Below are positions 6,169 through 40,613 of a stretch of 64,000 nt of DNA, piece after piece. Below the pieces are notes generated by a model, which was given only the letters and a program-made list of their open reading frames with translations, did not search any database and was not told the origin of the DNA. Position 1 is the first letter of the stretch, and each line of letters opens with the position of its first letter. The position numbers and the translations under genes are program-made. Where the stretch lies: assembly GCA_900315885.1 (NCBI GenBank), contig ONAT01000002.1, positions 28,776 to 92,775 of the forward strand, read 5' to 3'. This DNA is from an uncultured Erysipelotrichaceae bacterium (GTDB lineage: Bacteria > Bacillota_I > Bacilli_A > RFN20 > CAG-826).

Positions 6169-6795
6169 TTATCCTAATCTTGGCGAGTAAGAGTAAAGTG
6201 CTATCATATTATAAATCGTGTATTCATATGATTTCACACTTCCCTCAATAGTATTAATTTTGATGTCTTCTTCGCGATATATTCCGTATAGTTTAGTATC
6301 ATCTAAAATATCGTAAATACTTGTAAAAGATCCATCTTCGTTAATCACGTATTCTACGTCACGTGCCTGTATTAATTTGTTGTCATCATTATCTTCTGAA
6401 AGATAATTAATTTCCATCCCTTGAGATCCTGGTGGGGATTTTTTAATTAACGACATTTCCATAATACTAGCTTCATCTACTTTGATTTCATCAATTACTG
6501 TTTTATCTTCGTCTTCATAGTAAACTTCCAAGTAATCTCCCGCCACAACGTTAGAAATTACATTGTTTGTTTTTTTAGAATACAAAGTTAAATTAGTGGA
6601 TGAACTTAAAACATTATTCACTGAATAAGTTACTTTGTCTGTTTCAGTATCATAACATGCGTCAACATACAATCTAGTCATCTTATCACTAAGATTGTCA
6701 TTTTTGTTTTCGCTTGCGTTAGAATTTGAAACACCACAACTAAACATACCAATAGAACATGCCATTAAGCAAAAAAGACGTAAAACTTTTTTCAT
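6169..6795 (-). CDS. Lipoprotein, member of the tandem paralog family; co-transcribed with the upstream secreted peptidase.
   Basis: Signal peptide MKKVLRLFCLMACSIGMFSCG (lipobox). C-terminal ~170 aa nearly identical to the 212 aa paralog. Start is 3 nt after the peptidase stop. Confidence 0.7.
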   Translation of the reverse strand: MKKVLRLFCLMACSIGMFSCGVSNSNASENKNDNLSDKMTRLYVDACYDTETDKVTYSVNNVLSSSTNLTLYSKKTNNVISNVVAGDYLEVYYEDEDKTVIDEIKVDEASIMEMSLIKKSPPGSQGMEINYLSEDNDDNKLIQARDVEYVINEDGSFTSIYDILDDTKLYGIYREEDIKINTIEGSVKSYEYTIYNMIALYSYSPRLG

Positions 6796-6797
6796 TA

Positions 6798-19429: not shown

Positions 19430-20439
19430 AGAACCCCCAATTTAAGAAGTGATAACGCTATTTTGACCGCGTTATAACTTGCGCCTCTAATCAAATTATC
19501 TGATGTGGCAAAAAGGTTTAATGTATACTCACAGAACTTATCAATTCTAAATCTTCCAACATCAACATAATGTGTGCCACGCACTTCTTTTAAAGATGGG
19601 TAATCATCTAATGCTTTAATTCGTAAAAATGGATATTCTTGATAAAATTGATATACTTCATTTAAATTAATTTTCTTTTTACAAATTGCATATATACTTG
19701 CGCCATGGCCAAAAAGCGTTGGTACACGCACACAAGTAGGATTAATTTCTAAATCGGCGCGATGTAAAATTTTTTGTGACTCATTTATAACTTTAATTTC
19801 TTCACCTGTATAACCATCTTCATAAACTCTATCAACGATTGGTAAAATATTATTATATATTGGCTTTTTGATAACATTTTTGGACGGTAAATATGTTGGT
19901 TTATAATTTATATCTATACTTTCATTTACATATTCTTGCATAGCTAAATTACCTGCCCCACTTATTGATTGATAACTTGATACATTTATTTTTTCAACGC
20001 CATACATCTTTTCTAAAGGATAAATAGCTAATAAAATCATAATAGTAGTACAATTAGGATTTGAGTATATGTTTGAATTCGTTAATAAATCAGTCTCGTT
20101 TATCTCTGGTATGACAAGTGGAATATTTTTGTCCATACGAAAATAAGAAGAGTTATCAATTACTTTTGCTCCTAAGCGAATAAATTTACTTGCGTATTCT
20201 TTTGAAATATCTTCGCCTGTTGAAAAAAAGACTAAATCAAAATGTTCAAGATTTTCTTCACTTAATATTTTAATTTTATGTGTCTTGTCATTAACAATTA
20301 AATCTTCATTTGCGTGTTCACTAGATCCATAAATAGTCAACGATTCTAAAGGAAAATTAAGCCGATATAATTCTTTAATAATTGATACTGAAACTAAGCC
20401 GTGGCCTCCCACCACCGCTACTTTATATTTTTTACTCAT
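19426..20439 (-). CDS. asd: Aspartate-semialdehyde dehydrogenase.
   Basis: N-terminal Rossmann VAVVGGHGLVSVSII; active-site Cys context SNPNCTTIM; length 337 aa. Confidence 0.8.
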   Translation of the reverse strand: MSKKYKVAVVGGHGLVSVSIIKELYRLNFPLESLTIYGSSEHANEDLIVNDKTHKIKILSEENLEHFDLVFFSTGEDISKEYASKFIRLGAKVIDNSSYFRMDKNIPLVIPEINETDLLTNSNIYSNPNCTTIMILLAIYPLEKMYGVEKINVSSYQSISGAGNLAMQEYVNESIDINYKPTYLPSKNVIKKPIYNNILPIVDRVYEDGYTGEEIKVINESQKILHRADLEINPTCVRVPTLFGHGASIYAICKKKINLNEVYQFYQEYPFLRIKALDDYPSLKEVRGTHYVDVGRFRIDKFCEYTLNLFATSDNLIRGASYNAVKIALSLLKLGVL

Positions 20440-20491
20440 AAAAAAACACCCCTAACACTTTAATGTATGTAAGGGTGTATATTTTTAGAAA

Positions 20492-22390: not shown

Positions 22391-22528
22391 TTCTATATTT
22401 TTTATTTTATCAAAATTTTATAAATAAGTCGATAATTTAGTTTATGACTTATTTAGTGTTTAGTTTACGACTTCTTAAGATATTTGTTTTTAATCTTAAA
22501 ATATAGTAAAATATGGTAGGTGTTAGAA

Positions 22529-23272
22529 ATGGAACAAAAAAAATTTACTGTAAAATTCGCAGAAACTAAAGAAGAGTTAGATGCAACTTTTGCTTTAAGA
22601 TACAAAGATATGATTTTAGAATACAATTCGGAATCTCAAAACGAACAAAAACGTGATAGAAATATTTTTGATGATATTGCAAAGCAAATCATAGTTATAA
22701 ATAACGAGACAAATGAAGTAATAGGCTGTTATCGTTTAATAGATAATGCATTTTTTAATAAAAGCATTAGCACTTTTACATGTGAAAACGAATTTAATAT
22801 TTCAAAAATTAAGAATTCTGGTCATCGTATTTGCGAATTATCACGTGCGGTAATAAAAAATGAATATCGCACTGGTGTTCCGCTTATTTTATTATGGAAA
22901 TTTATCTATGATTACGCTATTAAAAACTCCATTCGTTTTCTTTTAGGAGATGCAAGCTTTTTTGGAATTGAACCTTCTAAACATATTCATTCTCTATCTT
23001 ATTTAGCACATTATCACGCTATTGAGAATGAATTTGAAGTCACTTCGCTCGAAGTGAACCCACAAATCAAGCTTCTAAAAAAAGAACATATTAATGTTGA
23101 TGAAGTAAAAAGCAACCTTCCACCTTTAATAAAGGCATATCTAACTTTCGGCTCTAAATTTTCAAAAGAGTATTTTATTGATCGCGATTTTAAAAGTATT
23201 GATGTCTTTACATTACTTGATTTTGAAAATTGTAATTTAAAATTATTAAAAAAATATCTACGTGTCGCCTAA
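22529..23272 (+). CDS. GNAT-family N-acyltransferase of the hemolysin/OlsB/GlsB-like class (Acetyltransf_5-like).
   Basis: Size and pattern (FTVKFAETKEELDATFALRY; CYRLID; ICELSRAVIKNEYR; LLWKFIYDYA) match the aminoacid N-acyltransferase family. Divergent from the PlsC-family acyltransferase. Probable start at the internal Met MEQKK (track ORF starts at 22520). Confidence 0.55.
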   Translation: MEQKKFTVKFAETKEELDATFALRYKDMILEYNSESQNEQKRDRNIFDDIAKQIIVINNETNEVIGCYRLIDNAFFNKSISTFTCENEFNISKIKNSGHRICELSRAVIKNEYRTGVPLILLWKFIYDYAIKNSIRFLLGDASFFGIEPSKHIHSLSYLAHYHAIENEFEVTSLEVNPQIKLLKKEHINVDEVKSNLPPLIKAYLTFGSKFSKEYFIDRDFKSIDVFTLLDFENCNLKLLKKYLRVA

Positions 23273-23310
23273 TTTTGTGTTAACTCTTCTTCTTTTTCAT
23301 ATAATATCAT

Positions 23311-23913
23311 ATGGAAAAAAAGTTGATTGGCATACCCATACGAAAATATAAAGATTTAAAAACCGATGTTATCGGCATATATGCCCGTTATCTAGATTAT
23401 TTTGAAAGCAACAATTTAATTGTTGTCTTTTTGACGTTAAACAATTATAAATATCTTATTAATTCTTTATCTTGCCTTGCACTTATTGGTGGGGGAGATG
23501 TTAATGCTAAGATATATAATTCTCTTGATACACTTGATTATGACTATGAACTAGATAAACTTGAATTTTTATTAATAAAAGAGGCTCTTGAACGCAAGTT
23601 ACCTATTTTTGGTATATGTCGAGGCTTACAAATTCTTAATATATATTTTGGTGGAACCTTAAAAGAAATCCCTTCTTCACATCTTGGTTTACACAATATA
23701 AAACTTAAAAATGATGTAGTAAAAAGCGTTAATTCTTTTCATCATCTTTGTATTGATAATTTAGCTAGTAATTTTTCGATATTAGCCAAAAGTAATGATT
23801 TCGTAATTGAAGAAATCGAAGACAAAAAAAGGATGATATTTGCCATACAATATCACCCTGAAATAAATTTTGATTATGAAGTAATTAATTACTTCTTATC
23901 ATATTTGCGTTAA
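23311..23913 (+). CDS. Class I glutamine amidotransferase-like / peptidase C26 gamma-glutamyl hydrolase (PuuD-like).
   Basis: Nucleophile elbow FGICRGLQILN; His-Glu in AIQYHPE. Confidence 0.7.
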   Translation: MEKKLIGIPIRKYKDLKTDVIGIYARYLDYFESNNLIVVFLTLNNYKYLINSLSCLALIGGGDVNAKIYNSLDTLDYDYELDKLEFLLIKEALERKLPIFGICRGLQILNIYFGGTLKEIPSSHLGLHNIKLKNDVVKSVNSFHHLCIDNLASNFSILAKSNDFVIEEIEDKKRMIFAIQYHPEINFDYEVINYFLSYLR

Positions 23914-25971
23914 TTAATAACGCATAATATAGCCACCAGATTTTGTAATCTCATCATAAGCATTATCCATCAATTGATAATCATAACGCTTATTTTCAAA
24001 GTTTTTATAAACTTCGTCATAAGGAATACCAGATACACTTTCAACAGTTTTGCTAACTAAATCAAATAGTTCATCTAGACCATCAAATGAAGTAATGCAT
24101 GAGTGGTATTTTAATTCTGAATCACCGTCAGAATCTTTGTAATAAAGATTTTTACTATTAAATACTTTTGTTCCATCATCTTTATAAGTAATCAAACTCT
24201 TTTTCATTGGCACATAGCCATTAACAATCATATTTGCGTTCCATCTATTATGTTCTTGATACGCCATCGCATTTCTTAAAGATAAAGTATGTGAGAAATG
24301 AGTAGGATATACAATATTTCCATCTTTTCTTTGGATCTCTTTAAAATTATCATAAATTTTAAAATATTCTTCGCGACTTATAGCTTTACTCTTATCATCT
24401 GTGACTTGTAGGCCCATCATACCTAATTTTTGTAAAATAGAAATAACAGAATCAGAATTGCTACGTTTTTTATCAACATCTAATTTTTTCCATACTTCGT
24501 TAATGGTTAATTTAGTATTTGGATTTCTTTCTTTTTCGTAATTGTACGCTCTTGCTTTCGCACTACCTAAAAGTTTTTCATTAATGATAACATCTTCATT
24601 AATGACACTTTCGACTGTGCCAAATGGAATTAAGCCATTATCTTTAATAATGCTTTCATAACGAGCGTTATCGATTTTTACATAAATATTTGTGTTAGAC
24701 TTAACATTCCATTCATGAAGTTTTTCTTTTAAGCGCAGAGCTAACTCGACATTTTGTAAATCATCACCAAATGAGATAATAAAAGCATTAAATCCATTAG
24801 TAATAGAGACACAATTATGTATCTTTTTATAGAAATCGAAATTATTAATGTCTAAATGTTCAAATGTTGTATTACTTATTTGATCACATCTTGGGAAATA
24901 TTCATCATTAATATCAAGATATTCCATTCTCTTAATGGTGTGATTAAAAAGATTATCTTCAATGTTGTTTTTATCAAAAATATAATAATTTACTGGTTTC
25001 CCGACGAATTTATCGTTTTTAATCGTAATAAATTGATAGAACTTAACAAGATTTAAATATAATGTTTTATTTGTGCCCCCAAAGCCGATTAAGAAGGCAT
25101 TAATTTTACTATCCGCATTAACTGTTCCTGTTTTAGTATCAAGTATTTTACCAAATGAATGTGAAAAATTATTGGATGAAACAAATAAATCACTTGTTAA
25201 TTGATGTTTATTAAAGAAATGAATATTTAAATTTGTGCCTTTAATCATTTTCTTTATTAAGTACCAGTTCTTATCTTTAATTAAGAAATATGAGTCATTT
25301 TCAAATTTTGAAAGATAATCAATAAGTTTGTATTGCTTTAATATGTCTTCTTCAAAAGAAATAAAGATATTATTTTCTTTGGCAAAGCGTTTCAAATCTT
25401 CAACTTTATTAATAATTGCAACATGCTTCTTTTCGTGCATTAATTCATCTTTAATTTTTTTATCTTCACTACTTAATAAAATGTAGACTCTCTTTTTCGT
25501 AGATTTTATAAAAGTTTTCGCATTTTCGTTATAGCCTAAAACCACTAATGAATTCTTTTTGATGATTAAATTTTTAAAGAAATTAACAATTTTATTAAAA
25601 AATAAATCAATAACTAAAGAGAATGTTATATAGGCGTAAAGTAACGCAACAACATAATATGCACATTCAAAATATGTGTTTTGTAAAGCCTGAGTCAAGT
25701 TACCTCTTGAAACATTGAGAGTTATCATTTTAAAACTATTATAAATAGAGTCAAAAATGATAATTAGAGGATTACCTACACCTTCATAGATATAACCACT
25801 TATCAATAAAGTAATAGATATGATAAAAAGAGGGACATAAAAAGAAGAATATTCTTTTAAAAAGAGATGCTTCTCTTTTATTATTTTATAAATTAATAAA
25901 CATAATAATGTAAAATCTAAAATGCAACAAATAATCGATATAATAGTCATTATTGAAGTCCTCCTGGACAA
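23914..25971 (-). CDS. Integral membrane protein (4-5 N-terminal TM helices) with two Rossmann-like (RCK/TrkA-N or SLOG-like) domains and a C-terminal RyR-like domain; candidate effector for the upstream TIR proteins.
   Basis: TM segments in aa 1-130. Glycine-rich beta-alpha starts LVVLGYNENAKTF and AFLIGFGGTNKTLYL. C-terminal MAYQEHNRWNANMIVNGYVP resembles the RyR repeat core (A..EHNxW......GW/Y). Start overlaps the 3' end of the TIR gene by about 20 nt. Confidence 0.45.
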   Translation of the reverse strand: MSRRTSIMTIISIICCILDFTLLCLLIYKIIKEKHLFLKEYSSFYVPLFIISITLLISGYIYEGVGNPLIIIFDSIYNSFKMITLNVSRGNLTQALQNTYFECAYYVVALLYAYITFSLVIDLFFNKIVNFFKNLIIKKNSLVVLGYNENAKTFIKSTKKRVYILLSSEDKKIKDELMHEKKHVAIINKVEDLKRFAKENNIFISFEEDILKQYKLIDYLSKFENDSYFLIKDKNWYLIKKMIKGTNLNIHFFNKHQLTSDLFVSSNNFSHSFGKILDTKTGTVNADSKINAFLIGFGGTNKTLYLNLVKFYQFITIKNDKFVGKPVNYYIFDKNNIEDNLFNHTIKRMEYLDINDEYFPRCDQISNTTFEHLDINNFDFYKKIHNCVSITNGFNAFIISFGDDLQNVELALRLKEKLHEWNVKSNTNIYVKIDNARYESIIKDNGLIPFGTVESVINEDVIINEKLLGSAKARAYNYEKERNPNTKLTINEVWKKLDVDKKRSNSDSVISILQKLGMMGLQVTDDKSKAISREEYFKIYDNFKEIQRKDGNIVYPTHFSHTLSLRNAMAYQEHNRWNANMIVNGYVPMKKSLITYKDDGTKVFNSKNLYYKDSDGDSELKYHSCITSFDGLDELFDLVSKTVESVSGIPYDEVYKNFENKRYDYQLMDNAYDEITKSGGYIMRY

Positions 25972-26945
25972 ATGTAATTGTTTTCAAATCCTTCTTTTTC
26001 TAATATCTTAAATAAACCTTTTGATTGACGTTTAGGAAGGGTAAAATAAACCCTATTTGTCGTGCCTGAATCACTAATGGAAATATCAGTAAGTCCAGCA
26101 TTTTGCAATAATTTAATAAATTGTTCCTTAATCATTGAATCGTAAATATCGACAAAACATTTAAATGTTACACCATACATGTTACTTACAAGAATTAAAT
26201 AAGTAACAGTATAATTATCAATTGAATAATTATCATATACTTTATTTAAAATAACGATTTCTTTACTTGTTTTTTTTGGTAAATCAATGAAAGGACAATG
26301 TTGATGTGCCATATAAAATTTGCAAAAACAATCATCTAATTCTTCACCGTTTTTATAACAGACTCGATTAGTTTCTGTGATGTATTGACGATACATTTGT
26401 GGAACGATAAATTGAAATTGATAAGAATAACGTGGAATTTTTTCAATTCCAGGAATCGCAATTTTTAAAGAAACATAACCTAGTTTACCTAATACTTCTT
26501 TGTTAAATTCTTCTTTTGTTAATAAATTTGATTCAGCTTCAAACAAATCAGAAAATAATGTGTTCTTTTTTAATTCTTCTTTTAATAAAGCTAAATCATC
26601 AATATATGTGGCATTTGGTAAAAATGACTTTTTAGTGCCTTTAAAAACATATAATTTTTTATGCATGGAAATTAAACGACCTATTTCAAACATAGTCCAA
26701 GGCGTATTAATATCTCCAACAATCACCGCACATGTTGATTTCGCAATCATTTCATTAATGCGGTTATAAAAATCTTGAGTCTCCGCATTTAATAACTTAT
26801 CAGATAAAATATTAACTTCATCTCCACAATAAGCGATAATCTCATTTACTAATTCTTCGTTTGCCCGAGCGTAACTTAAAAACACTCCAACTTCTTTTTG
26901 TTGGTCTGCACTTATTTTAGTAATTTCTAAATTTAATTCACCCAT
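25950..26945 (-). CDS. TIR-domain protein (N-terminal TIR, roughly aa 18-110) with a ~200 aa C-terminal domain of unknown function; paralog of the upstream gene.
   Basis: Box-1 VGVFLSYARANEE (aa 19-31). Beta-C CAVIVGD. Alpha-C helix TPWTMFEIGRL has W83 and putative catalytic E87 in the S-x-W-C-x-x-E-L position. The C-terminal region (GVTFKCFVDIYD..KEQFIKLL..RVYFTLPK) is paralogous to the 359 aa neighbour. Confidence 0.6.
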   Translation of the reverse strand: MGELNLEITKISADQQKEVGVFLSYARANEELVNEIIAYCGDEVNILSDKLLNAETQDFYNRINEMIAKSTCAVIVGDINTPWTMFEIGRLISMHKKLYVFKGTKKSFLPNATYIDDLALLKEELKKNTLFSDLFEAESNLLTKEEFNKEVLGKLGYVSLKIAIPGIEKIPRYSYQFQFIVPQMYRQYITETNRVCYKNGEELDDCFCKFYMAHQHCPFIDLPKKTSKEIVILNKVYDNYSIDNYTVTYLILVSNMYGVTFKCFVDIYDSMIKEQFIKLLQNAGLTDISISDSGTTNRVYFTLPKRQSKGLFKILEKEGFENNYICPGGLQ

Positions 26946-26956
26946 AAAGTTACCTC

Positions 26957-28036
26957 CTATTTCGGATAAAAATAGTTGACAGTTTCACTATATTCTTCTT
27001 TAACATCATCTTTGGCATCATAGAATAATCTGCCATCTTCAATATTAAGTGGGAAATACACTCTAACTTTATCATCAACAATCTTTTTTACGATTTGTTC
27101 TTTCTTTAATCCATCATCCACTAAAATAGTGACTAAATCACTTGGTGTAATGTCGTTATCTTGAATTTCAAAGAAAGGTAAGAAAGTAACACCTAATATT
27201 TCGTTATTTGGCACTACGAATTCCATCTTAATTGAACCAACTAAATCAGTTGGATCAACTTCTTCGCCACATTCAATTTTCTTAAAAGTTTTAATTTTTG
27301 AAAACATACTGCGAAGTGGAAAATCTAAATCAAGACGTTTCATTTCTTGATGATATGGCCAATAGCCAATATTTTCAAAACTTATTTTTTGTCCAAAATG
27401 CAATACTCTAATGCCAGTCATAACTGATTCTTCTAGCATTGTGTAAACATCATTAAGCGTGATATCATCACGTACTTTACTTAATCTTTCATATATTTTT
27501 AATAACGAATTATATCTTAAATCGAGCATAACGACAAATTTAACATAAAAAATACGATTACGAGTGTAGCAATCTATCGACTCATCTTTAAAAATGTTAA
27601 GAGGCAACGTGATAAAGTTTTTGACCGCTTCAATAACTTTTTCTTTACTAGAAAGTTGTACATCTCTAATTGGTGACTTAGAGAAAAGATTAAGACTTTC
27701 TGGACTTAATCCTGCATTATAAAGCATTAATTTCTTACCAATTAAAACTCCTGCTTCATGCATTGTGTAGTTATACATTTGAGGGTCATTAAGTGTTTCA
27801 TCATCAAGAACAATAATACCAACATCGGCTTTTAAACAGTTATAAATAGATTTTTCGACTAGAAAATCATTATCAAGATTTTCTTTACTTTTAACATATA
27901 AATAATAGTTAAAACCATATTTATCGAGTTCGTTTAAAAATTCACGGCATTCTTCAAGCTTATTTTCATTTAAACTAATATAAAGCAATAACCGTTTTCC
28001 TGGATTTCTAATTTCTCTTTTAGACGCAAGGAACAT
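26957..28036 (-). CDS. TIR-like domain protein (divergent N-terminal TIR or flavodoxin-like fold) with the same C-terminal domain as the downstream paralog.
   Basis: LLLYISLNENKLEE (box-1-like), GIIVLDDETLNDPQMYNYTMHEAG (beta-C plus helix with E94). C-terminal GVTFLPFFEIQDND..KEQIVKKIV..RVYFPLN aligns to the 331 aa paralog. Confidence 0.45.
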   Translation of the reverse strand: MFLASKREIRNPGKRLLLYISLNENKLEECREFLNELDKYGFNYYLYVKSKENLDNDFLVEKSIYNCLKADVGIIVLDDETLNDPQMYNYTMHEAGVLIGKKLMLYNAGLSPESLNLFSKSPIRDVQLSSKEKVIEAVKNFITLPLNIFKDESIDCYTRNRIFYVKFVVMLDLRYNSLLKIYERLSKVRDDITLNDVYTMLEESVMTGIRVLHFGQKISFENIGYWPYHQEMKRLDLDFPLRSMFSKIKTFKKIECGEEVDPTDLVGSIKMEFVVPNNEILGVTFLPFFEIQDNDITPSDLVTILVDDGLKKEQIVKKIVDDKVRVYFPLNIEDGRLFYDAKDDVKEEYSETVNYFYPK

Positions 28037-28037
28037 C

Positions 28038-29633
28038 TTACTCCACCTCCATTACATAAGCTTGATATGGTTCGATTACTTTGTAATCGTGAAAGTTGTT
28101 ATAATTATTATACAATACTCTTTTAACATTAGGCAAATTATTAAGGGTAATGACATTATTTGTACAATTACAAATAATTAATAAATTGCCTCGTTTATAA
28201 GAAATAATCCTCTCATCTAACATAATTTCTTCATAATAGCTTTGGGTAATTTGTGTTAAACTCTTACGAAGTTTTATGATTTTTTTATATTCATTAAGAA
28301 GAGATCTTTCTTCTTGCTCTTCTTTTTTAACATTTATTGTCTTGTAATTTGGATTAATGTGAAACCAAGGTTTAGAAGAAGAAAAGCCAGCGTATTCACT
28401 ATCATCCCATTGCATAATGGTACGTGCATTATCGCGGCTTGTATCTTTTACAGCGTTAACAAATTCTTCTTCACTTAAAGTGGTATTTAATTTATAAGTT
28501 GTACGAATTCTTACATCATCAAAGTCTGAAACTTTTTTAAATGGGTAATTAGTCATACCGATTTCTTCGCCGTTATAAATAAAGGGTGTTCCTTTTAACA
28601 TATACATTAAAACCGCTAACATAGAGCCGGATTCAATAAAATAATCCATATCACCATATAAACTCATCGCGCGTTCAATATCGTGATTAGTTAAATATAA
28701 GCCCATCCAGCCTTTTTCATTTAATTCGTTTTGATATGCACTTATCAAGTTTCGCATAGCTTTAACATCCATCTTATTGCTAGACATATTATGTAAATCT
28801 ACTTTTGCACAATTAGTAAAACCAAAAGTATAAACCATATCTAATTCATCATTACAATAATCTAGGGCTTGTTTGATTGTTGGATTTCCTCCAATCTCAC
28901 CAATAGTCATAATGTTATAATGCGAAAAAATTTCTCGTTTAAATTCTTTTAAAATATTATGAACTTCTTTCAAGTTACTAAATAAGGAATAATCATAAAC
29001 TAAATCTTTATTAATTGGAGTGGTATTTTCTAATTTCTTTTTGCATAGGTGTGAAATTGCATCTAATCTGAAGCCATCAATACCTAAAGCAAGATAATAC
29101 TTGATTATTTTCTTTACTTCTTTTTTAAGATTAATGCTCTTCCAGTTTAAATCTGGCATTTTATCAGAGAAGATATGTAAAAAATATTCTTTGCGTTCTT
29201 CGTTATATGAAAACGCACTGCCTCCAAAAAAACTACCCCAATTATATTTTTCTTTACTCCAAATATAAAAATCGTCATAATATGGGTCTTTTGCACATGA
29301 TTTTTTAAACCATTCATGCTCAATTGAAGTGTGATTTAAGACTAAATCAAAAATAATCTTTAATCCTAAGTTATGAGCCTTAGTTATCATTTCTTTAACA
29401 TCTTCCATTGTGCCATAATCAGGATTTATTTTGTAATAGTCACGAATATCATATCCGTTATCGTCCATCGGAGAATCAAATATTGGACAAATCCATATTA
29501 AATCAATTCCTAAATCTTTTAGATAATCTAATTTTGAAGTAATGCCTTTTATGGTTCCCACGCTTGAATCAATACTTTTAAAACTTTTAGGATATATTTG
29601 ATAACCAATCGCACTTTTATACCACATTGTCAT
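28038..29633 (-). CDS. GH13 alpha-glucosidase / oligo-1,6-glucosidase-type glycoside hydrolase.
   Basis: YQIYPKSF, DLIWICPIFDSPMDDNGYDIRDY, catalytic region GIDGFRLDAISHL, HDIERAMSLYGD; length 531 aa. Confidence 0.85.
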   Translation of the reverse strand: MTMWYKSAIGYQIYPKSFKSIDSSVGTIKGITSKLDYLKDLGIDLIWICPIFDSPMDDNGYDIRDYYKINPDYGTMEDVKEMITKAHNLGLKIIFDLVLNHTSIEHEWFKKSCAKDPYYDDFYIWSKEKYNWGSFFGGSAFSYNEERKEYFLHIFSDKMPDLNWKSINLKKEVKKIIKYYLALGIDGFRLDAISHLCKKKLENTTPINKDLVYDYSLFSNLKEVHNILKEFKREIFSHYNIMTIGEIGGNPTIKQALDYCNDELDMVYTFGFTNCAKVDLHNMSSNKMDVKAMRNLISAYQNELNEKGWMGLYLTNHDIERAMSLYGDMDYFIESGSMLAVLMYMLKGTPFIYNGEEIGMTNYPFKKVSDFDDVRIRTTYKLNTTLSEEEFVNAVKDTSRDNARTIMQWDDSEYAGFSSSKPWFHINPNYKTINVKKEEQEERSLLNEYKKIIKLRKSLTQITQSYYEEIMLDERIISYKRGNLLIICNCTNNVITLNNLPNVKRVLYNNYNNFHDYKVIEPYQAYVMEVE

Positions 29634-29639
29634 CCACTC

Positions 29640-30563
29640 CTAAATCTCATTATTCATTTCGTTTTCGTTTTGATTTTTGATTAACATTGTCATTGCTTCA
29701 ATGTAATTTTGTAATTTTTTTAATGCCTCAATTTGTATATCGACAATATTGATACTCTCTTTTGCAAATATTGATTTATACATATTGATTTTCCAATCTT
29801 TGATTAAAATAAATAAGTTATCATCAAATAAAACAAGACATAAATTTGTTTTAATAAAATTTTGGAAATCATATAATTCTTTAATTATTTGATAATTTAA
29901 AACGGTATATATTTTGTTATCAAGTGTGGCGTAAAGAGCAAAATTTTTATCATAAAGATAACTATTATTCATCGTTCCTAATCCATATTGTTTTAAATTT
30001 TTTTCGTTATAGGAAAGTTTACCTTTCTTATTGTCATTGCGTAAAATAATCATTTCATTGTAAAGAAAATCTATTTTTGTTTTTATTAACACATCATATT
30101 TATCTTTATCGTGCTTCAATTGAAATAAATCAAAATAAGCTCGACTAGAGGTTTGCGTAAAAGAATACACTTCTTTAAAATCATTAATAAGAATGTAATC
30201 TTTAATGAATTTACGTTCGACATCATTTAGCCCATTAGTGTTTTTGAAAAGTGCTAAACCATCAAGCATTGCTTCATTTTCTAAAAGTGTTTGATGGAAA
30301 ATTTTATATTTCTTATTTAAATGAAAATACATAAGAATAAAAGATATGACACTTAACACAAAGGCTAAAGTTATAAAAATAATAACAGAACTAATATTTG
30401 AGGCACTATCATAAACCCATTTCAAATGTGGATTTAAGAAAGTATAAAAAGCATAAGCAAGCGCGGTCACAAAAAGCATAGCGAAAAGAACGACCAAGAA
30501 TAATTTAAACTTGTTCAAGCGTTTCTTATTCCTTATTTTTTTGCTTGCATAACTTAATTCCAT
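29640..30563 (-). CDS. Membrane protein of unknown function (two N-terminal TM helices plus a ~220 aa soluble domain), sitting where JetD would be.
   Basis: TM helices FKLFLVVLFAMLFVTALAYAF and ISSVIIFITLAFVLSVISFILMYF. Start assigned to the internal Met MELSYASKK with RBS GGGGAGA (track ORF starts at 30590). No recognisable Toprim or other catalytic motif. Confidence 0.4.
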   Translation of the reverse strand: MELSYASKKIRNKKRLNKFKLFLVVLFAMLFVTALAYAFYTFLNPHLKWVYDSASNISSVIIFITLAFVLSVISFILMYFHLNKKYKIFHQTLLENEAMLDGLALFKNTNGLNDVERKFIKDYILINDFKEVYSFTQTSSRAYFDLFQLKHDKDKYDVLIKTKIDFLYNEMIILRNDNKKGKLSYNEKNLKQYGLGTMNNSYLYDKNFALYATLDNKIYTVLNYQIIKELYDFQNFIKTNLCLVLFDDNLFILIKDWKINMYKSIFAKESINIVDIQIEALKKLQNYIEAMTMLIKNQNENEMNNEI

Positions 30564-30614
30564 ATTCTCCCCAATGTTAAATAAGACCAACTAAAAGCGT
30601 TGGTCTATTTAATT

Positions 30615-33600
30615 TTATTTAGCAAAAGATACTTTTTCTTCTTCTGCGTATAATCTTACACGAGATGTGTTCTTATCGTGTAATACTACTAATGTTTCAT
30701 CAACTAATTCAGAAATATCGGCAATCTTATCAGATGGAGCACTGAGAATAGCTTGTAAGCCGAATTTACGTAATAAACGAATTGATTCCGTAATACGACC
30801 TTTATCCATCTTAGAGAAGGCTTCATCAAAGATGATAAGACGTGTGGAATTTCCAAGTTCACCTGGATCATTGACGCGATATAATTGAGCAAAACTTGCT
30901 AAAACTGCAATGTAGAAAGGAGTTTGTGTTTCACCACCACTCTTTTTCTTGATCATTTTAGAAAGACGTTGTTCTTGTCCTTCTTTGTTTGTAACGATTA
31001 AGTCAAAGTCTAAATAGGAACGATAATCTGTAAATTTTTCAACATTTGCAGCTAATTGAGCTGTTTTATCACCATGATCACCGACATCAACGATTTGTCT
31101 AAATAAATCGTTCATAACTTCAGAATATTTTTCAATAAAGGCTGATTCATCTTCGCCAACTTGAAGTAATAAGTCATCTTTAATCATATCGTAGTAACGA
31201 TGATATAGTTGACTTGGCTTACATGTAAAGCGATAGGAGTCGTTACCAAAGCGAGATTGTGATAAAGCATCATTTAAATCTTCAATTTGTGTTTCAACAC
31301 CTTCGATAGCGCTTCTTAATTTAGAGATGAAGTCATCTTTAAATTGCTTTGTTGCCTTATTATAAGCATCGTTAATTGCGATACGATAATGTGGTAATTT
31401 AATATCGCGCAAATCAGATAATTCTTTTTCGTAAGCATCATTATCTTTTTGGTCAGTATCATATGATAAACGATAATCTTTAACATAATCACGACGTAAT
31501 TTCACAACACTATTGAAAATCGTTTGAGCGCGGTATTGCACTTGTGAGTATTTAGCTTGGAAATCAGCAATAATGTCAAGTGGTGACTTACCTTCCACGA
31601 TTAATTGGTTAAATAGTGGCTCTGCTTCTTCGGCGACAACAAAAGCATCATAATTCTCTTTTAAGTGATTTTCTCTTTCAAGAGTTTTATTCTTTGTTTC
31701 AGGTATTTTTTCTTCTTTTAATGTCTTAATTTGCGTATTGAGTTGTCCACGTTCTTCATACAAACTTTGACGTTCATTTTCAAGATTCTTGATATCATCT
31801 TCGACATCTTTAATACGACGATCAAAGCTTTCAATTTGTGTGACATCGTGTTTAGATAACTCATCATCACAATAAGCAATTGTTTGTTTAAGTCCATCGA
31901 CATTTCTTGAAGCTTCAATTAGCGCAAGTGTTGTATTACTTTCATTAGTGTTAATTGATTCTAAGGATGCAGCTTCAGAAATATCTTTATGCACTTCTCT
32001 TAACATAGCAACGAGATGGTTGTTACGGTCAAGTTCTGCACGTTTTAAAGCAATTTGTGCTTCGTTAACACTTCTTCCAATATAAGAAGGTGTGTATAAA
32101 CGAGGGTTGATTTTTCCCATTGCAAAATTACGATAAATATCACAATCAGGAGTAATACCATTCATAGATTCACGAGCTTCTTGAGGATTACGACATTTCA
32201 TCAAACGCCCAATCAAGAAGTTAGTATAACATCTTGCTCCTTCATGGTCCGTTATAATTTCTTCTGCTAAAGAATTCTTCTCACAAGAATAATTTCTTTC
32301 AATAATCTTTTCTTGGTCAACAAGTGTTGTGCCATAGAAATGATTCTTAGCAAGTAAGTCACGTAAGATTTCGTAAGCATCTAAATAATATCTGCCATCA
32401 ACAAATAAATTGAATTTTTGGCTGTGTAAGAAACCTTCGATAGCGTTAATCCATTTTGGTGACTTAATATCAATCAAATCAGCATAAAGAGAAACAGTAA
32501 TTGGTTTACCATATTTCTCAGTTAACCTTCTTTGTAATTCATTTTTAATCATTACAAGGTTACGATCATAAGACTTTGTACCATTTCTTAAATCTGCTTC
32601 TTCCGCACGGAGTTGAGCGGATTGACGGTCAAAGTTTGTAATTGTACGACCTAAAGATACACTCATCGCTGAAACAAGTTTTTTGAACTTATCAAGCGAA
32701 TCACGCCACTCTTTCAAAATCATACTATCTAATGTTTCAATATGTGGTAATTCGTTATCGCGTAAATTTGTGGAAGTACGGACAACTAATTCAGCACATT
32801 CTAATAATTCATTAAATTCATAAGCGCGGTCATCATTTAAAATTGATTTATCAAGAGTTGATAACTTATTAACAATGTTAGAAGCTACGTTAATAAAGTC
32901 ATTCGCGTATTTTGTTAAATTGTTTTTAACAGCCTCCGCATCTTTATTTAAAGCCGCTAATCTTTCAATCGCAGCCTTACGTTGCTCTCTTAATTCATCA
33001 GTAAGTCGATAAGTATCATTACTTGCCTTATCTTGAATGAGACGAGTTTTACGACGATTAAGTTCAGCTATATTAACATCAATATCTGCTAATTCGTTTT
33101 CAATTTCTAACAATCTAGTTTGCGCATTACCAATTGAATCTTCATAAGATTTTAAACGATTCAATTCCATTTGTAATTCGGCTTTTTCGACAACATATCC
33201 ATAAATACTCATATTGTGGAAATTAGTCTTATAAGCTTCATAAGATTTTTCAATTTCTTCTAATCGCTCAACACGAAGTCCCATAATGAGAGCTTCATTT
33301 TCTAAACGTTTATATTGCAAAATGTTTTCTTGCATTGAATCGATAGAAATATTAGCTTGTGAATCACAAATATATTCTGTAATGAAAGTTGTAATATCGG
33401 TAATTGGGGTAAAGGAAACAGCTTTTTTGAAAAGTGAGAAATACTTGTCTTTAATATTTCCAAACTTTTTCTTTAACAATTCTTGATATTGTTTATTTGT
33501 ATCTAAGAACTTAAAGTTTCTTTCACCATAAGTTTCGGCAAAATACTTAGCCAATGTTTTAAAGTCCATTGGAATATTATTTTTAATAAATTCATTTTCT

Positions 33601-34013
33601 GGAATTTTATCTTCTAATAAGAAATAACGATGTTCTTCGCTTCCATCATCATATGAATCAAAGACAATACCTAAAGTAAATGATTTGTCATTTAAGTCAT
33701 CATAGAATTCCATAGCGATATAGGAAGTAAAGCGTCCATCACGTAAATACTTGAAACCACCATCTTCGGAATCACCTAATTCTCCACGAAGGTATCCTTT
33801 TAAAGTACGAGAAGATTTTTCACTCGCTGCTTTATTAAAGAAACGTCCAGAAGTATCGCCTAACAAAACGACTTGCATCGCATCAATAAGTGTTGATTTA
33901 CCAGAAGCATTAAGACCTGTTAAGAAAACAATTGGTTCAATGTTAATTGTTTCGTTCCAAAAATAGTGCCAGTTAATGATTTTAATTTTCTTGAGAGATT
34001 TCATCTGGCTCAC
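30615..34013 (-). CDS. SMC-like ABC ATPase of the MukB/MksB/JetC class (Wadjet JetC-like).
   Basis: N-terminal IKIINWHYFWNETINIEPIVFLTGLNASGKSTLIDAMQVVLLGD (Walker A preceded by the NW..F element typical of MksB/JetC). Long central coiled coil. C-terminal signature SGGETQTPFYIAVLASFAQLY and Walker B LIIFDEAFSKMD. 1132 aa. Confidence 0.75.
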   Translation of the reverse strand: MSQMKSLKKIKIINWHYFWNETINIEPIVFLTGLNASGKSTLIDAMQVVLLGDTSGRFFNKAASEKSSRTLKGYLRGELGDSEDGGFKYLRDGRFTSYIAMEFYDDLNDKSFTLGIVFDSYDDGSEEHRYFLLEDKIPENEFIKNNIPMDFKTLAKYFAETYGERNFKFLDTNKQYQELLKKKFGNIKDKYFSLFKKAVSFTPITDITTFITEYICDSQANISIDSMQENILQYKRLENEALIMGLRVERLEEIEKSYEAYKTNFHNMSIYGYVVEKAELQMELNRLKSYEDSIGNAQTRLLEIENELADIDVNIAELNRRKTRLIQDKASNDTYRLTDELREQRKAAIERLAALNKDAEAVKNNLTKYANDFINVASNIVNKLSTLDKSILNDDRAYEFNELLECAELVVRTSTNLRDNELPHIETLDSMILKEWRDSLDKFKKLVSAMSVSLGRTITNFDRQSAQLRAEEADLRNGTKSYDRNLVMIKNELQRRLTEKYGKPITVSLYADLIDIKSPKWINAIEGFLHSQKFNLFVDGRYYLDAYEILRDLLAKNHFYGTTLVDQEKIIERNYSCEKNSLAEEIITDHEGARCYTNFLIGRLMKCRNPQEARESMNGITPDCDIYRNFAMGKINPRLYTPSYIGRSVNEAQIALKRAELDRNNHLVAMLREVHKDISEAASLESINTNESNTTLALIEASRNVDGLKQTIAYCDDELSKHDVTQIESFDRRIKDVEDDIKNLENERQSLYEERGQLNTQIKTLKEEKIPETKNKTLERENHLKENYDAFVVAEEAEPLFNQLIVEGKSPLDIIADFQAKYSQVQYRAQTIFNSVVKLRRDYVKDYRLSYDTDQKDNDAYEKELSDLRDIKLPHYRIAINDAYNKATKQFKDDFISKLRSAIEGVETQIEDLNDALSQSRFGNDSYRFTCKPSQLYHRYYDMIKDDLLLQVGEDESAFIEKYSEVMNDLFRQIVDVGDHGDKTAQLAANVEKFTDYRSYLDFDLIVTNKEGQEQRLSKMIKKKSGGETQTPFYIAVLASFAQLYRVNDPGELGNSTRLIIFDEAFSKMDKGRITESIRLLRKFGLQAILSAPSDKIADISELVDETLVVLHDKNTSRVRLYAEEEKVSFAK

Positions 34014-34620
34014 CTACTTTCAATTGTTCTAAAGCTTCTGACATTGCTTTAATCTTTTGGTTATCAACCGCAAATAAGATACTTGGTAAAATATAGAATG
34101 CGACGTTACCTTCGTCATAAGATCCACTAACTTTAGCGATAATATTATGATTAGCTAAGAAACGCAGTGACTTAGCGAATAAACGACCACTCATTCTTTT
34201 ACCTGACATCGTAATATTATGGTCAATCATTGTTTTTAATAAAGTTGGAGTAGTGATATAAATCGCTTCACCAGTTTGGCTTGATTCATTTTTCTCAGTT
34301 TCATAAATTAAACGTAAGACAAATAAGATAAGTGATGTTTCTCTTTCCATTCTTAATCTATTTTGCTCGTTAAGATTAATCAAAGCTACAACACCATTAA
34401 GGACATCTTTTTCCATCATCCAATTAGTGTATTTTAAATAGTCATTTATTAAATCAAAGTGGCGTTCAATAAAACGATAATCAGGATTAATACGCATTGC
34501 TTTTTCTTTGTTATCAAATACATCACGTACAATGAAAGATTTTAAAAGCAATGTATTAGTAACACGTGCGAATTCGTTTTGTTCGCCATTTGATAATTTT
34601 TCAAATTCAGTTTCAAACAT
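33982..34620 (-). CDS. JetB/MksE-like protein (DUF4194-like size and position).
   Basis: 212 aa acidic protein; its stop overlaps the SMC-like gene start and its start overlaps the 480 aa gene stop. Assigned by operon position and size only. Confidence 0.45.
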   Translation of the reverse strand: MFETEFEKLSNGEQNEFARVTNTLLLKSFIVRDVFDNKEKAMRINPDYRFIERHFDLINDYLKYTNWMMEKDVLNGVVALINLNEQNRLRMERETSLILFVLRLIYETEKNESSQTGEAIYITTPTLLKTMIDHNITMSGKRMSGRLFAKSLRFLANHNIIAKVSGSYDEGNVAFYILPSILFAVDNQKIKAMSEALEQLKVGEPDEISQEN

Positions 34621-36062
34621 TATTCAGTTTTCTCCTTTCGTTTAAACACAAGTTTTGGTAAAACATAACCTTGAGAAAGGACATGTCCATCGTCGGAATA
34701 ATCTACTTCGTAGAAGCAATCATCATCATTACGATTTAAAGTTGCAAGAATTAAGAGAATAAAGGCATCGTAGTCTGGTAAAGGTATCTCCTCTGCTCTC
34801 ACTTCATCAGCATCACCAAACGCTCTTTCCATAAATTCAAGCACACGCGCACTTGTGAAGACATTACGGGTTTGATCCAAGAAGTTTTGCATAATTAAAT
34901 CGCCAGCTTCTTCAAAGTTATTGACAATTGGTAACGGTTCTCCTATTTCACGATATTGACGGATAATTGGCAGAGTTATTGAATCTGGATCAATATATCC
35001 TTGTTCGTGGAACATGAGAGCATCTTGCATTGAAGTTAAGATATTGCGCAAGTCTTTCGAACCATTTCCCGCCATTGCATCGGCATTCGCTTTTGCGTAA
35101 GCTTTAAATATAGTTTCCAAGTGACCTTTAATTGTCTTATCGTTATTGTTGAAATAAACAATTTTAGAAGCACTAGATTTGGTGTATTCGCTATGACTTG
35201 CATCAATTTGACTAATCATACCATTTAATTGTTCATACATATCTTGTATGTAATTTATCATGTTAATTAAATCCGCTTCTGCTTTTCCATAGTCGCGACT
35301 CTTTCTTAAAATCAAAGATTGCTCAATGAGCATTTTTCTTGTTTTTTCATCACGTAACCACTTTTGTAAAATGGAGGTTATTGGTCTTTTAAAACGAGTG
35401 ACAGAGTCAAATGTTTTCAAAGGGTGATAGAGTCTATCAGAAATACGTACTTTATAATCATCAAAGTGATTAGCAAGAACTTCATTTGTTGTAAACAAGT
35501 TTGATAGGCGATGTTGATAGATTTTAATTTGGTGTCCCAAAGTAACTAACTCAATACGAAGTTTTTTCGTATTTTCATAAGCTCTCAATAAAGTCACATA
35601 CATTAAATCATCTGGGTCATCATCTTCTAATTTCAATTCACTATACGTTGAGTGAACAAGAGAGTTATATGCCGCTTCTGATTCACTATTAATATCTTTT
35701 AAGCACGCAAGCATTTTAATAGAATACGAAGGCAGAATAATATATTCTTCAAACGATTCAGGATCTATTTGTACATCAATCCATCCAGTCTCTTCAAGTC
35801 TACGGAGAATGAATGCAGCACGACTAGGCAAAGTTGGATTTGCAAGAGCGTCATCTTCTGTGCCTTCTTCTGACATATCTAGACTCATAACTAGGTCAGT
35901 GGCATTCTCTTTTAAGATGCGCAAGAAATCTTGCTTTTTAATCGTCATCTCTTCAGTTTCTAGGCTCTTATATAATACTTCTAGAGCCATAGCGTATACT
36001 TCTTTATTTTTACTAGATAGGATTGAGAAAAAGTTGGTAGGAATTATATCAAATAATCGCAT
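34620..36062 (-). CDS. JetA/MksF-like (kleisin-like) protein (DUF3375-like size and position).
   Basis: 480 aa, first gene of the triad, gene order jetA-jetB-jetC as in Wadjet / MksFEB. Assigned by operon position and size only. Confidence 0.45.
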   Translation of the reverse strand: MRLFDIIPTNFFSILSSKNKEVYAMALEVLYKSLETEEMTIKKQDFLRILKENATDLVMSLDMSEEGTEDDALANPTLPSRAAFILRRLEETGWIDVQIDPESFEEYIILPSYSIKMLACLKDINSESEAAYNSLVHSTYSELKLEDDDPDDLMYVTLLRAYENTKKLRIELVTLGHQIKIYQHRLSNLFTTNEVLANHFDDYKVRISDRLYHPLKTFDSVTRFKRPITSILQKWLRDEKTRKMLIEQSLILRKSRDYGKAEADLINMINYIQDMYEQLNGMISQIDASHSEYTKSSASKIVYFNNNDKTIKGHLETIFKAYAKANADAMAGNGSKDLRNILTSMQDALMFHEQGYIDPDSITLPIIRQYREIGEPLPIVNNFEEAGDLIMQNFLDQTRNVFTSARVLEFMERAFGDADEVRAEEIPLPDYDAFILLILATLNRNDDDCFYEVDYSDDGHVLSQGYVLPKLVFKRKEKTE

Positions 36063-36110
36063 TTTTTCTCCTCCTAAAGTTTATATTAAATTTTACCACA
36101 TTTTTAGTCT

Positions 36111-36131
36111 CTTTGTAAATATAATTTACAA
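36111..36131. promoter_or_regulatory. 9-3-9 inverted repeat TTTGTAAAT-ata-ATTTACAAA in the promoter region upstream of the jetA-like gene; candidate operator.
   Basis: Read directly; overlaps a TATAAT-like hexamer; located about 50-70 nt upstream of the 480 aa gene start. Confidence 0.35.
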
Positions 36132-36187: not shown

Positions 36188-36643
36188 GTGATTGCTGTGA
36201 AGATTTATCCAAATATGAAAAAGACTTTAATTTATTTTTCTTTATTGTCGATTGGCTTGTTGTTCTTGTTCTATTTAACATTTGATGGTTCCTTTACTTG
36301 GCCCTTACCTTCTAAAGATTATATTATTTTTGCTGGTTGGCTAGTTATTACTGTTATTTACTTTGTTATAACTTTAAGAGGTGGATATTACGTCTTAGAA
36401 AAAAGTGGTTTAAGACAAAAGCAATTAAATAAAGATTTAATGTATGAATATAAAAGAATTATTTACATTAATGAAGAGTGGTCAAGAAAAAACGGAATGT
36501 TATTATTTGTAACTGATCGCGGAGATGCCAAGTATTTAATTTTAGATAAAAAACAAATTTTACTCGATGAAATGCTTAAAAGATGTTCAAAATTAATGAC
36601 TCGCGAGGAAGTAAGTAACAAATTTCCAAACCTAAAGTTTTAA
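36188..36643 (+). CDS. Small membrane protein (two TM helices), hypothetical.
   Basis: GTG start after AAAAAGG in the ORF track; alternative ATG (MKKTLIYFSLL) at 36215; hydrophobic N-terminus. Confidence 0.4.
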   Translation: MIAVKIYPNMKKTLIYFSLLSIGLLFLFYLTFDGSFTWPLPSKDYIIFAGWLVITVIYFVITLRGGYYVLEKSGLRQKQLNKDLMYEYKRIIYINEEWSRKNGMLLFVTDRGDAKYLILDKKQILLDEMLKRCSKLMTREEVSNKFPNLKF

Positions 36644-36740
36644 ATAATTTTCAAAAGTTAAAAAAAGTAATTGCATAATTAATAAAAAGTATGTTATTAT
36701 ACAAAAGCATTGTAAATGCGTTAAGGGAGGTATGTAAAAA

Positions 36741-36935
36741 ATGTCAAGAGTTTGCCCAGTAACAGGTAAAGCACCTTTAAGCGGTAATAAACGCTCTCAC
36801 TCCTTAAGAGCAACTCCGCGTAGATGGAATGTCAACTTACAACCATATAAGGTCGTCGTTGATGGACGTGTCCAAACAGTTAGAATGTCCGCACGTGCTT
36901 ATAGAACCCTTAATAAATCTACTAAAGAAAACTAA
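36741..36935 (+). CDS. rpmB: 50S ribosomal protein L28.
   Basis: MSRVCPVTGKAPLSGNKRSHSLRATPRRWNVNLQ matches the L28 N-terminus; RBS AAGGGAGG. Confidence 0.9.
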   Translation: MSRVCPVTGKAPLSGNKRSHSLRATPRRWNVNLQPYKVVVDGRVQTVRMSARAYRTLNKSTKEN

Positions 36936-39731: not shown

Positions 39732-40613
39732 CTAGTTACCTTTTTTATGGAATAAACGATAGAAGAAACCATGTTGTTCTTTAATCATTTCGGGGTTACG
39801 TAGAATACGTTCAATGTCTTTACGCATTTCTTTTACTGACTTATATCGTTCTGAAGGATTCTTACGCACAGCTTTTAAGATTATACGTTCAATTTCTTTT
39901 GGGGTTGAAGGAATAATCTTACGAGGTGAAGGAAATTTGTCTTTAATGTGACGAATAGCAACACTTACTGGAGTATCGTCTTCAAAAGGAACTTTACCTG
40001 TTACTAATTCAAAGAAAGTAACACCTAAAGAATAAATATCGCTTAAAAAAGATGCTTGTTGTCCTTTAGATATTTCTGGTGCTAAATAATGCACTGAACC
40101 AATAATAGTTTCACTGCGAGTTAGACGTGCAGAATTCTCAAAAGTCGCAATACCAAAGTCTCCAAGTTTAATTGTGCCATCTGCGGTCCAATAAACATTT
40201 TGAGGCTTAATATCACGGTGAATAACTCCGTGTTCATGGGCATGAATAACCGCGGAAGTTAATTGATACATAATATCGCAAGCTTCTAAAGGCGTGAAAT
40301 GGCCTCGAATATCTAAGACATCTCGTAAGTTCTTGCCATTAATGAACTCATTGGCCATATATGGACGACCTTCATATGTTCCTAAGTTAATAACACGTAC
40401 GATATTAGGATGACTTAAAGATGCTGCTGCTCGCGCTTCTCTTTCAAAGCGTGACAAATTAATAGGGTTAGTCATCATATCGCCCTTGATTATTTTAATT
40501 GCTACTTTTTTCTTACTTACAATATCGTAAGCTTCATAGACAATTGACATTCCACCCTCGCCTATTTTTCTTTCAATTCGATATCTTTCATCAATTACAT
40601 CATTGATATTCAT
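39732..40613 (-). CDS. Hanks-type Ser/Thr protein kinase, kinase domain only (PrkC-like, lacking TM and PASTA domains).
   Basis: GEGGMSIVYEAYD, VAIKI, HRDIKPQNV, DFGIA, SVHYLAPE; 293 aa; sits between prpC and rsgA as in B. subtilis. Confidence 0.85.
   Translation of the reverse strand: MNINDVIDERYRIERKIGEGGMSIVYEAYDIVSKKKVAIKIIKGDMMTNPINLSRFEREARAAASLSHPNIVRVINLGTYEGRPYMANEFINGKNLRDVLDIRGHFTPLEACDIMYQLTSAVIHAHEHGVIHRDIKPQNVYWTADGTIKLGDFGIATFENSARLTRSETIIGSVHYLAPEISKGQQASFLSDIYSLGVTFFELVTGKVPFEDDTPVSVAIRHIKDKFPSPRKIIPSTPKEIERIILKAVRKNPSERYKSVKEMRKDIERILRNPEMIKEQHGFFYRLFHKKGN

Follow-up and report, generated by a model that had tools for sequence, protein, structure and literature searches.

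Type I Wadjet plasmid-restriction systems, which go by the names JetABCD, MksBEFG and EptABCD, have been described in E. coli GF4-3, P. aeruginosa PA14 and C. glutamicum, and our plasmid search matched examples in Cohnella herbarum and Rossellomorea. They combine a kleisin (JetA), a KITE protein (JetB) and a MukB-like SMC ATPase (JetC, DUF3584) with JetD, the subunit that executes cleavage, which has an N-terminal aCAP region and a Toprim domain (DUF2220). Here, we describe an operon with the same profile families, the same gene order and the same translational coupling in a 64,000-nucleotide stretch of contig ONAT01000002.1 from an uncultured Erysipelotrichaceae bacterium (the whole stretch is referred to below as the window). 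The operon consists of jetA, jetB and jetC without jetD, and it occupies a core, syntenic locus and not an island or plasmid. The reading that we favor, with moderate confidence, is that it encodes a nuclease-free, ATP-driven, loop-extruding SMC complex that acts on the chromosome, like MksBEF and MukBEF.

There are precedents for complexes of this group that have no nuclease. E. coli MukBEF is likewise a nuclease-less member of the Wadjet/Mks group, and serves as a housekeeping chromosome-folding motor (PMC7617805). MukBEF replaced Smc-ScpAB in its own lineage and has partners such as MatP. Its genes are also in the order mukF-mukE-mukB, but its proteins are highly diverged, whereas those encoded in the window score as JetA1, JetB1 and JetC1. 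P. aeruginosa MksBEF is likewise a Wadjet-group SMC/kleisin/KITE operon without MksG; however, it belongs to a different phylum, represents an independent loss event, coexists with Smc-ScpAB, and has only remote sequence similarity to the window proteins. Within the Wadjet group, several further systems also lack MksG/JetD (PMC7617805). Hence, the original prediction for this locus, which was made from the sequence alone, was mistaken in stating that all described Wadjet types carry jetD.

Nuclease-less Wadjet-group operons, including those of the clade to which the window belongs, are already catalogued. Data S1 of Bürmann 2025 (Cell; PMC7617805; see also Fig. S1A there) lists “FEB” operons that have the same kleisin-KITE-SMC order and the same absence of MksG/JetD as the window operon. 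One of them, from Erysipelotrichales bacterium GCA_022508535.1 (JAFLUZ010000005.1, mksB at 20292-23696), is among the loci that we compared (L007), and its JetC is 83% identical to that of the window. The window's own genome is not in the Data S1 table as consulted. That study only tabulates the FEB operons; the searched passages of its main text and supplement are silent on core position, on a spread across at least 80 species, and on selection. Our findings extend a documented phenomenon, and do not describe a new one.

Three full-length type I Wadjet genes

All three genes, jetA, jetB and jetC, are of the type I Wadjet kind and full-length, and the ATPase motifs are intact. Three co-directional open reading frames (ORFs) on the minus strand, encoding 480, 212 and 1132 amino acids, exactly fill positions 30615-36062 of the window, in the predicted jetA-jetB-jetC order. 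The product of jetA (34620..36062, minus strand; 480 amino acids), an MksF-like kleisin, matches the Pfam family JetA (PF18982, DUF5716) at 4.1e-96 over model positions 2-434 of 434, and the PADLOC model JetA1 at 2.1e-128. The product of jetB (33982..34620, minus strand; 212 amino acids), an MksE-like KITE protein, matches the MukE-like Pfam family DUF4194 at 2.2e-15 (57 bits, with a cut-off of 32.7) and PADLOC JetB1 at 3.1e-67. The product of jetC (30615..34013, minus strand; 1132 amino acids from a GTG at 34013), an MksB-like SMC ATPase, matches PADLOC JetC1 from end to end (E=0, 1147 bits; residues 4-1127 align with positions 1-1090 of the 1097-position model).

The end-to-end match to JetC1 identifies JetC as a protein of the MukB/JetC type and not of the SbcC/RecN/Rad50 type, in agreement with the original prediction. 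Rad50, RecN and SbcC act without kleisin and KITE partners, and the encoding of both such partners alongside jetC is a further reason for this class assignment. JetC also scores above the Pfam cut-offs for AAA_29, SbcC_Walker_B and MukB_N, although the MukB_N match is marginal (24.5 bits, with a cut-off of 23). Other SMC-like models in PADLOC (LmuB, mad3 and DndD) match only the head of JetC, at 1e-6 to 1e-12. All of the predicted motifs are present: INWHYF at residues 13-18, GLNASGKST (Walker A) at 33-41, SGGE (signature) at 1025-1028, and IIFDEAF (Walker B) at 1060-1066. None of these motifs varies in 11 homologs, the most distant of which is 54% identical. A sequence search of the PDB returned one distant match for JetC (the JetC chain of 8DK1, 3e-7, head only), one marginal, unrelated match for JetA, and none for JetB.

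Translational coupling, which had also been predicted, is evident at both junctions. The jetA/jetB junction is TAATG, such that the start of jetB overlaps the stop of jetA, with an AAGGAG ribosome-binding site ahead; jetB and jetC overlap by 23-32 nt. Judged from the sequence, the true start of jetC is probably the ATG at 34004, which has AGGTG upstream and gives a protein of 1129 amino acids, and not the GTG at 34013. A database protein of 1129 amino acids (P0001) is 100% identical to JetC; an exact-sequence lookup with the 1132-amino-acid form found no match because this database record begins three codons later.

Absence of JetD and conservation of the locus

A scan of one genome per species identified a relative of JetC in 444 genomes, and a protein database search returned hundreds of close JetC homologs in uncultured Bacilli. 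Our locus comparison covers the best 80 of the 444 genomes; ORFs were called and clustered at all loci of a JetC-related set of 85. The best 80 are all metagenome-assembled genomes (MAGs), with labels that include Erysipelotrichales, Bacilli, Mollicutes, Tenericutes, Coprobacillus sp. CAG:826, Candidatus Onthovivens and Candidatus Alectryobacillus, or are obviously mislabelled bins. We take the GTDB order RFN20 to be the home of CAG-826, CAG-288 and Onthovivens.

The predicted lack of a JetD gene downstream of jetC was borne out by every search of the window. None of the five proteins encoded downstream of jetC matched a JetD model in PADLOC or Pfam, and there was no JetD among the PADLOC matches listed for the 43 other ORFs of the window. 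As queries we used two annotated JetD proteins, which find each other at 1e-36; they were taken from JetABCD operons on plasmids of Cohnella herbarum and Rossellomorea. With these, no tblastn match in the window or at the related loci had an E value below 3. A JetD hidden Markov model (HMM) gave nothing better than E=0.03 against all six-frame, stop-to-stop fragments of the window, the 85 JetC-related loci and the plasmid loci. None of the 80 loci was found to have a JetD less than 10 kb away. The interval between jetC and the next gene is only ~50 nt and holds a hairpin, and is too short to accommodate a decayed jetD. No SMC, ScpA, ScpB or JetD was found in the remainder of the window or in the sequences up to 10 kb past each window end, taken from contigs with identical end genes; together these represent only a small fraction of the genome.

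Gene content and order show that JetABC is vertically inherited at one core-genome locus. The jetA-jetB-jetC order is found at every locus with enough sequence. We found jetA at 79 of the 85 loci, the remaining loci being truncated contigs, and JetC is a full-length ORF at every locus whose contig covers jetC, over a range of 48-83% identity. Approximately 45 loci share the upstream block of the window, which consists of rlmN, genes for a PP2C phosphatase and a Ser/Thr kinase, rsgA, rpe, a membrane protein gene, and p151-rpmB as a divergent pair; the remaining loci are either truncated or rearranged. On the other side, glgC-glgD-glgA are located directly after jetC in 57 of 80 loci, with leuS, coaX, tex and the like farther on. 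The same flanks recur in species whose JetC is 48-83% identical to that of the window. Plasmid-encoded homologs of JetC have at most 29% identity (28-29% for the plasmid-borne JetABCD examples), and 2.9 million viral contigs yielded one partial match only.

The operon is also constrained like a housekeeping gene set, since the identity and dN/dS values of the jet genes are similar to those of the flanking genes. Mean identity to the window is 58% for JetC, 63% for JetB and 57% for JetA; for the neighbors it is 57% for Rpe, 53% for the kinase, 50% for RsgA, 45% for the PP2C phosphatase and 71% for RlmN. For closely related genome pairs, dN/dS is 0.017-0.084 for jetA, jetB and jetC (0.02-0.07 for jetA and 0.02-0.08 for jetB), and 0.013-0.108 for RlmN, the kinase and Rpe. 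Across all loci, the identity of JetC is only weakly rank-correlated with that of its neighbors (rho 0.29, p 0.08), and the correlation was not used as evidence; most identity values fall in a narrow, saturated band, and co-variation of JetC with its neighbors is visible only in the closest relatives.

The published tree gives a context for the missing nuclease. The L007 protein belongs to a 100%-supported clade of four FEB operons, and the other three are from Erysipelotrichaceae bacterium GCA_015059045.1, Clostridium sp. CAG:288 and Treponema rectale (PMC7617805). The four neighboring branches that were looked up, from Acidaminobacter, Fusibacter, Pseudoclostridium thermosuccinogenes and Ruminococcus sp., are FEBG, i.e. 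they include the nuclease gene (PMC7617805). The portions of the tree consulted suggest that, among type I systems, JetD was lost just once, at the base of this clade; the nodes that join the FEB clade to the FEBG branches have bootstrap values of only 15-23 (PMC7617805). Kandleria vitulina DSM 20405, a cultured carrier of an operon that Data S1 also enters as FEB, branches in another part of the tree (PMC7617805).

Two side observations concern the distribution of such operons outside the Bacilli MAGs. The FEB operon of Treponema rectale (QOS39287.1; CP031517, 460737-466440) is positioned inside the Bacilli FEB clade, as sister to that of Clostridium sp. CAG:288, with 100% support (PMC7617805); the published tree suggests that the nuclease-less operon was transferred horizontally out of Bacilli to a spirochaete. 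In addition, distant JetABC operons for which JetD is not annotated are found in two large, non-mobilizable plasmid records. One is Agathobacter rectalis plasmid NZ_CP143948.1 (L087, 2774-8366), in which a gamma-carbonic anhydrase gene directly follows jetC. The other is a Salipiger plasmid (L089, 2970-8429), for which the lack of JetD is uncertain because the PLSDB gene table is incomplete.

Chromosome folding, defense and other readings

What might a Wadjet complex do without its nuclease? We propose that the JetA kleisin, a JetB KITE dimer and the JetC ATPase would form a complete SMC holocomplex of the type I Wadjet family. The clade consists of uncultured Bacilli with small, low-GC genomes (MAGs that carry the label Erysipelotrichales, “Mollicutes” or Bacilli); an ancestor of it would have lost the JetD Toprim nuclease, and the operon has since been inherited vertically at one core locus, between the rpe...rpmB block and glgCDA/leuS. 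From knowledge of the family, the complex could still load on DNA and extrude loops by means of its conserved ATPase. Hence, its likeliest job would be chromosome folding and segregation, and not plasmid cleavage. A nuclease-less chromosomal condensin of the MksBEF type was one of the possibilities raised in the original prediction, and this possibility is consistent with the core position, the absence of JetD nearby, the purifying selection, and the published placement in the FEB clade.

Some observations weigh against a nuclease-free role. GCA_022508535.1, the relative whose JetC is 83% identical to that of the window, also holds a complete FEBG (JetABCD) operon on a different contig (JAFLUZ010000004.1, 99420-105734; MksG is MCH5180171.1) (PMC7617805). 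At least one member of the clade, then, possesses Wadjets both with and without the nuclease, and a JetD that acts in trans is conceivable. Moreover, the solved Wadjet structures are too distant for JetD-docking surfaces to be mapped on JetABC. JetABC might belong to a Wadjet nuclease system that obtains its JetD in trans, e.g. from a second complete JetABCD operon. We assign a low probability to this scenario. The second operon has its own JetABC, and its JetC is on a long, distant branch outside the FEB clade (PMC7617805). Docking of JetD uses specific contacts with the “larynx” of the JetC head, and possibly with the N-terminal helix of JetB. Furthermore, a cognate jetD is normally found in the same operon, yet there is none in the vicinity at the 80 loci. 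An alternative explanation is that JetABC counters plasmids or other episomes without cleaving them: complete extrusion of small circles would be followed by their compaction, silencing, sequestration or mis-segregation, in a manner similar to the restriction of extrachromosomal DNA by Smc5/6. In line with this, the clade adjoins JetD-bearing type I defense systems in the published tree (PMC7617805), the ATPase and all three subunits are intact, and SMC-based silencing of extrachromosomal DNA is discussed in a review (PMC10586767). However, defense genes usually turn over, change loci and are patchy among relatives, whereas JetABC is fixed at a housekeeping locus in 80 species, with dN/dS values like those of rlmN. 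No Wadjet without a nuclease is known to restrict plasmids, and the published reconstitutions need JetD for restriction. We consider an anti-episome function unlikely, although it is the likeliest of the alternatives.

The original prediction also offered a Wadjet-like DNA sensor, the effector arm of which has been replaced by TIR-like and membrane proteins encoded downstream. In the window, the eight genes from jetA to p685 (the gene for the membrane protein) are tightly packed and co-directional, with no strong terminator between a promoter-like site at ~36100 and the terminator-like hairpin at 23859-23830; this applies to one genome. The N-terminus of p331, one of the downstream proteins, is predicted to have a TIR/nucleoside-deoxyribosyltransferase (NDT)-like fold. 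On the other hand, not one of the 85 related JetABC loci has an amylase, p359, p331 or p685 gene, whereas the amylase-p359-p331 genes (L090) and a related p363-p341 pair (L091 and L092) recur with glycosidases and without Jet genes. Neither p359, p331 nor p685 has a PADLOC defense match at E <= 0.01 (ThsA, ThsB and others), and relatives have co-directional glycogen-synthesis genes in the same position. Moreover, the gene in the position expected for jetD encodes a TtfA-like protein with two transmembrane (TM) helices, and is missing from most relatives. The Jet operon is independent of the TIR-like and membrane protein genes downstream, and replacement of the effector arm is very improbable. 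We give even less credence to the possibility that the operon is the decaying remnant of a defense system which, having lost its nuclease, is turning into a pseudogene. JetD is indeed missing, but JetC is full-length wherever it is covered, its catalytic motifs are invariant, and dN/dS is 0.02-0.08. The selection and conservation data refute this explanation.

If the complex does fold the chromosome, as we favor, it may have gone further and replaced Smc-ScpAB as the main chromosome-folding motor of the clade. This would be a second, independent takeover of the MukBEF kind, in Firmicutes. Order-wide fixation at a core locus, combined with housekeeping-level constraint, is what a takeover from Smc-ScpAB would look like; we nonetheless regard this as a rather unlikely extension of our proposal. 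Should Smc-ScpAB prove to be absent, the locus would be considerably more interesting, as a second MukBEF-like replacement of the canonical condensin by a domesticated defense system.

The role of nuclease-free complexes of the Wadjet group bears on how MukBEF and MksBEF are related to a defense system, whether as its descendants or as its source. The clade is a clean natural example, in which JetD was apparently lost once and the operon was then strongly constrained at one housekeeping locus over a long evolutionary span. It is also a comparison set for the features of JetABC that change between plasmid killing and chromosome work, and the separate, complete Wadjet retained by at least one relative adds to its value for comparison.

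Neighboring genes and transcription signals

The gene that follows jetC in the window (29640..30590, minus strand) is a 316-amino-acid ORF for a DUF3137-like protein with two TM helices; its true start is likely the ATG at 30563, which gives 307 amino acids. The protein matches Pfam DUF3137 at 2.4e-5, below the cut-off, and its homologs, which carry PF11335, are restricted to the same narrow clade. In the AlphaFold (AF2) model (mean pLDDT 72), two long TM helices are combined with a beta-rich domain, and the sole PDB match of the model is the mycobacterial transport factor TtfA (6t84), at 2.3e-4. As a candidate Toprim nuclease, the protein was rejected: the AF2 model has no predicted Toprim fold. 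The gene is located between jetC and glgC in 10 of the 80 loci, which are the closest relatives of the window. It neighbors jetC only in these relatives, and its membership of the Jet system is doubtful.

Approximately 11 further loci have a different, fast-evolving gene of two-TM architecture in the jetC-glgC slot. In total, about one quarter of the related species have a slot gene for a protein with a basic N-terminus, two TM helices and a ~200-amino-acid domain, which belongs to the DUF3137-like cluster 25 or to clusters 28, 170 or 173. Examples are located at 29640-30590 in the window (minus strand), 13397-14254 in L027, 13444-14310 in L021 and 13430-14347 in L025. Homology between these positional families appears at best marginal. 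Compared by hhalign, cluster 25 shows no significant similarity to cluster 28 (E 0.012, probability 3.5%), and its HMM matches cluster 173 no better than 9.5e-5.

Beyond the DUF3137-like gene lie genes for a GH13 alpha-amylase, p359 and p331 (25950-29633, minus strand), and then p685. Based on its recurrence, the amylase-p359-p331 group is a portable cassette in its own right, with a glycosidase as the recurring partner and not a defense gene. The same order is repeated in L090 (5344-8999), with 58/47/48% identity, where it is followed by an ABC transporter; the p363-p341 pair in L091 (6896-10933) and L092 has a GH127 glycosidase as its neighbor, and is located between rpoZ and priA. Homologs of p331 are few, and fall into five clusters. 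In the window's genome, the cassette has landed where relatives hold glycogen-synthesis genes.

The descriptions of the downstream proteins in the original prediction were broadly right with respect to the two-TM protein, the glycosidase and the membrane protein; of the two proteins that had been called TIR proteins, p331 is the one for which a TIR/NDT-like fold was found. The N-terminal ~110 residues of p331 (~20-127) are modelled with a pLDDT of 80-92 and a fold resembling TIR domains, nucleoside deoxyribosyltransferases and DNPH1. The model matches TIR domains (SfSTING, AbTir, SARM1 and ThsB) about as well as it matches DNPH1, BcmB and nucleoside deoxyribosyltransferases, with E values of 1e-4 to 1e-2, and the Pfam TIR_2 match (3.5e-3) is below the cut-off. 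Residues W83 and E87 are invariant, and the Cys-rich C-terminal half models poorly. On the basis of the model, “TIR-like” is a fair label for p331.

The last gene of the array, for the multi-TM protein p685 (23914-25971, minus strand), overlaps the end of p331 by 22 nt and is followed by the terminator-like hairpin mentioned above. The N-terminus of p685 weakly resembles the TM and Rossmann part of polyprenyl-glycosylphosphotransferases (TIGR03025, 3.5e-5). The Jet locus of the window (23311-30590) does not contain glgC-glgD-glgA, unlike that of most relatives (L002, L004 and others). In their place are the amylase cassette, p685, a GNAT-type gene (22520-23272, plus strand) and a gene for a VTT/acyltransferase membrane protein (20492-22390). 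Along with the amylase, p359, p331 and p685 genes, the GNAT gene and a 632-amino-acid gene are at none of the 85 related loci; all are singletons.

Upstream of the operon, a promoter-like site (36090..36119, minus strand) consists of TTTACA, an 18 nt spacer and a TG-extended TAAAAT; it is a match to the consensus pattern only. This site is ~30 nt upstream of jetA, inside the 125-bp region that separates jetA from the divergent p151-rpmB pair, and promoter-like matches in the region upstream of jetA are no more common than in shuffled sequence. The divergent pair (36188-36935, plus strand), which encodes a 151-amino-acid two-TM protein (p151) and ribosomal protein L28 (rpmB, 36741-36935), is kept in this arrangement in 47 loci, and the 125 bp between jetA and p151 presumably serve both sides as a divergent promoter region. 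At the other end of the operon, the hairpin between the jetC stop codon and the next gene (30584..30606) has an 8-bp stem and a 7-nt loop (AGACCAAC...GTTGGTCT). Its T tail on the coding strand is weak, and from its sequence it may be a partial terminator.

Two minor observations concern more distant parts of the locus. The kinase gene of the upstream block (39732-40613, minus strand), next to that for the PP2C phosphatase, encodes 293 amino acids that correspond to the kinase domain alone; no extracellular PASTA-type domains were matched in Pfam. The region past the right end of the window varies between samples, as seen in three contigs that share an identical 5'-nucleotidase gene (L095 at 3991-7438, L096 and L097). 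Its variable contents are a PemK toxin gene, genes for an AAA ATPase and a NERD protein, or phage-like genes, and the region looks like a small variable island that is unrelated to the Jet locus.

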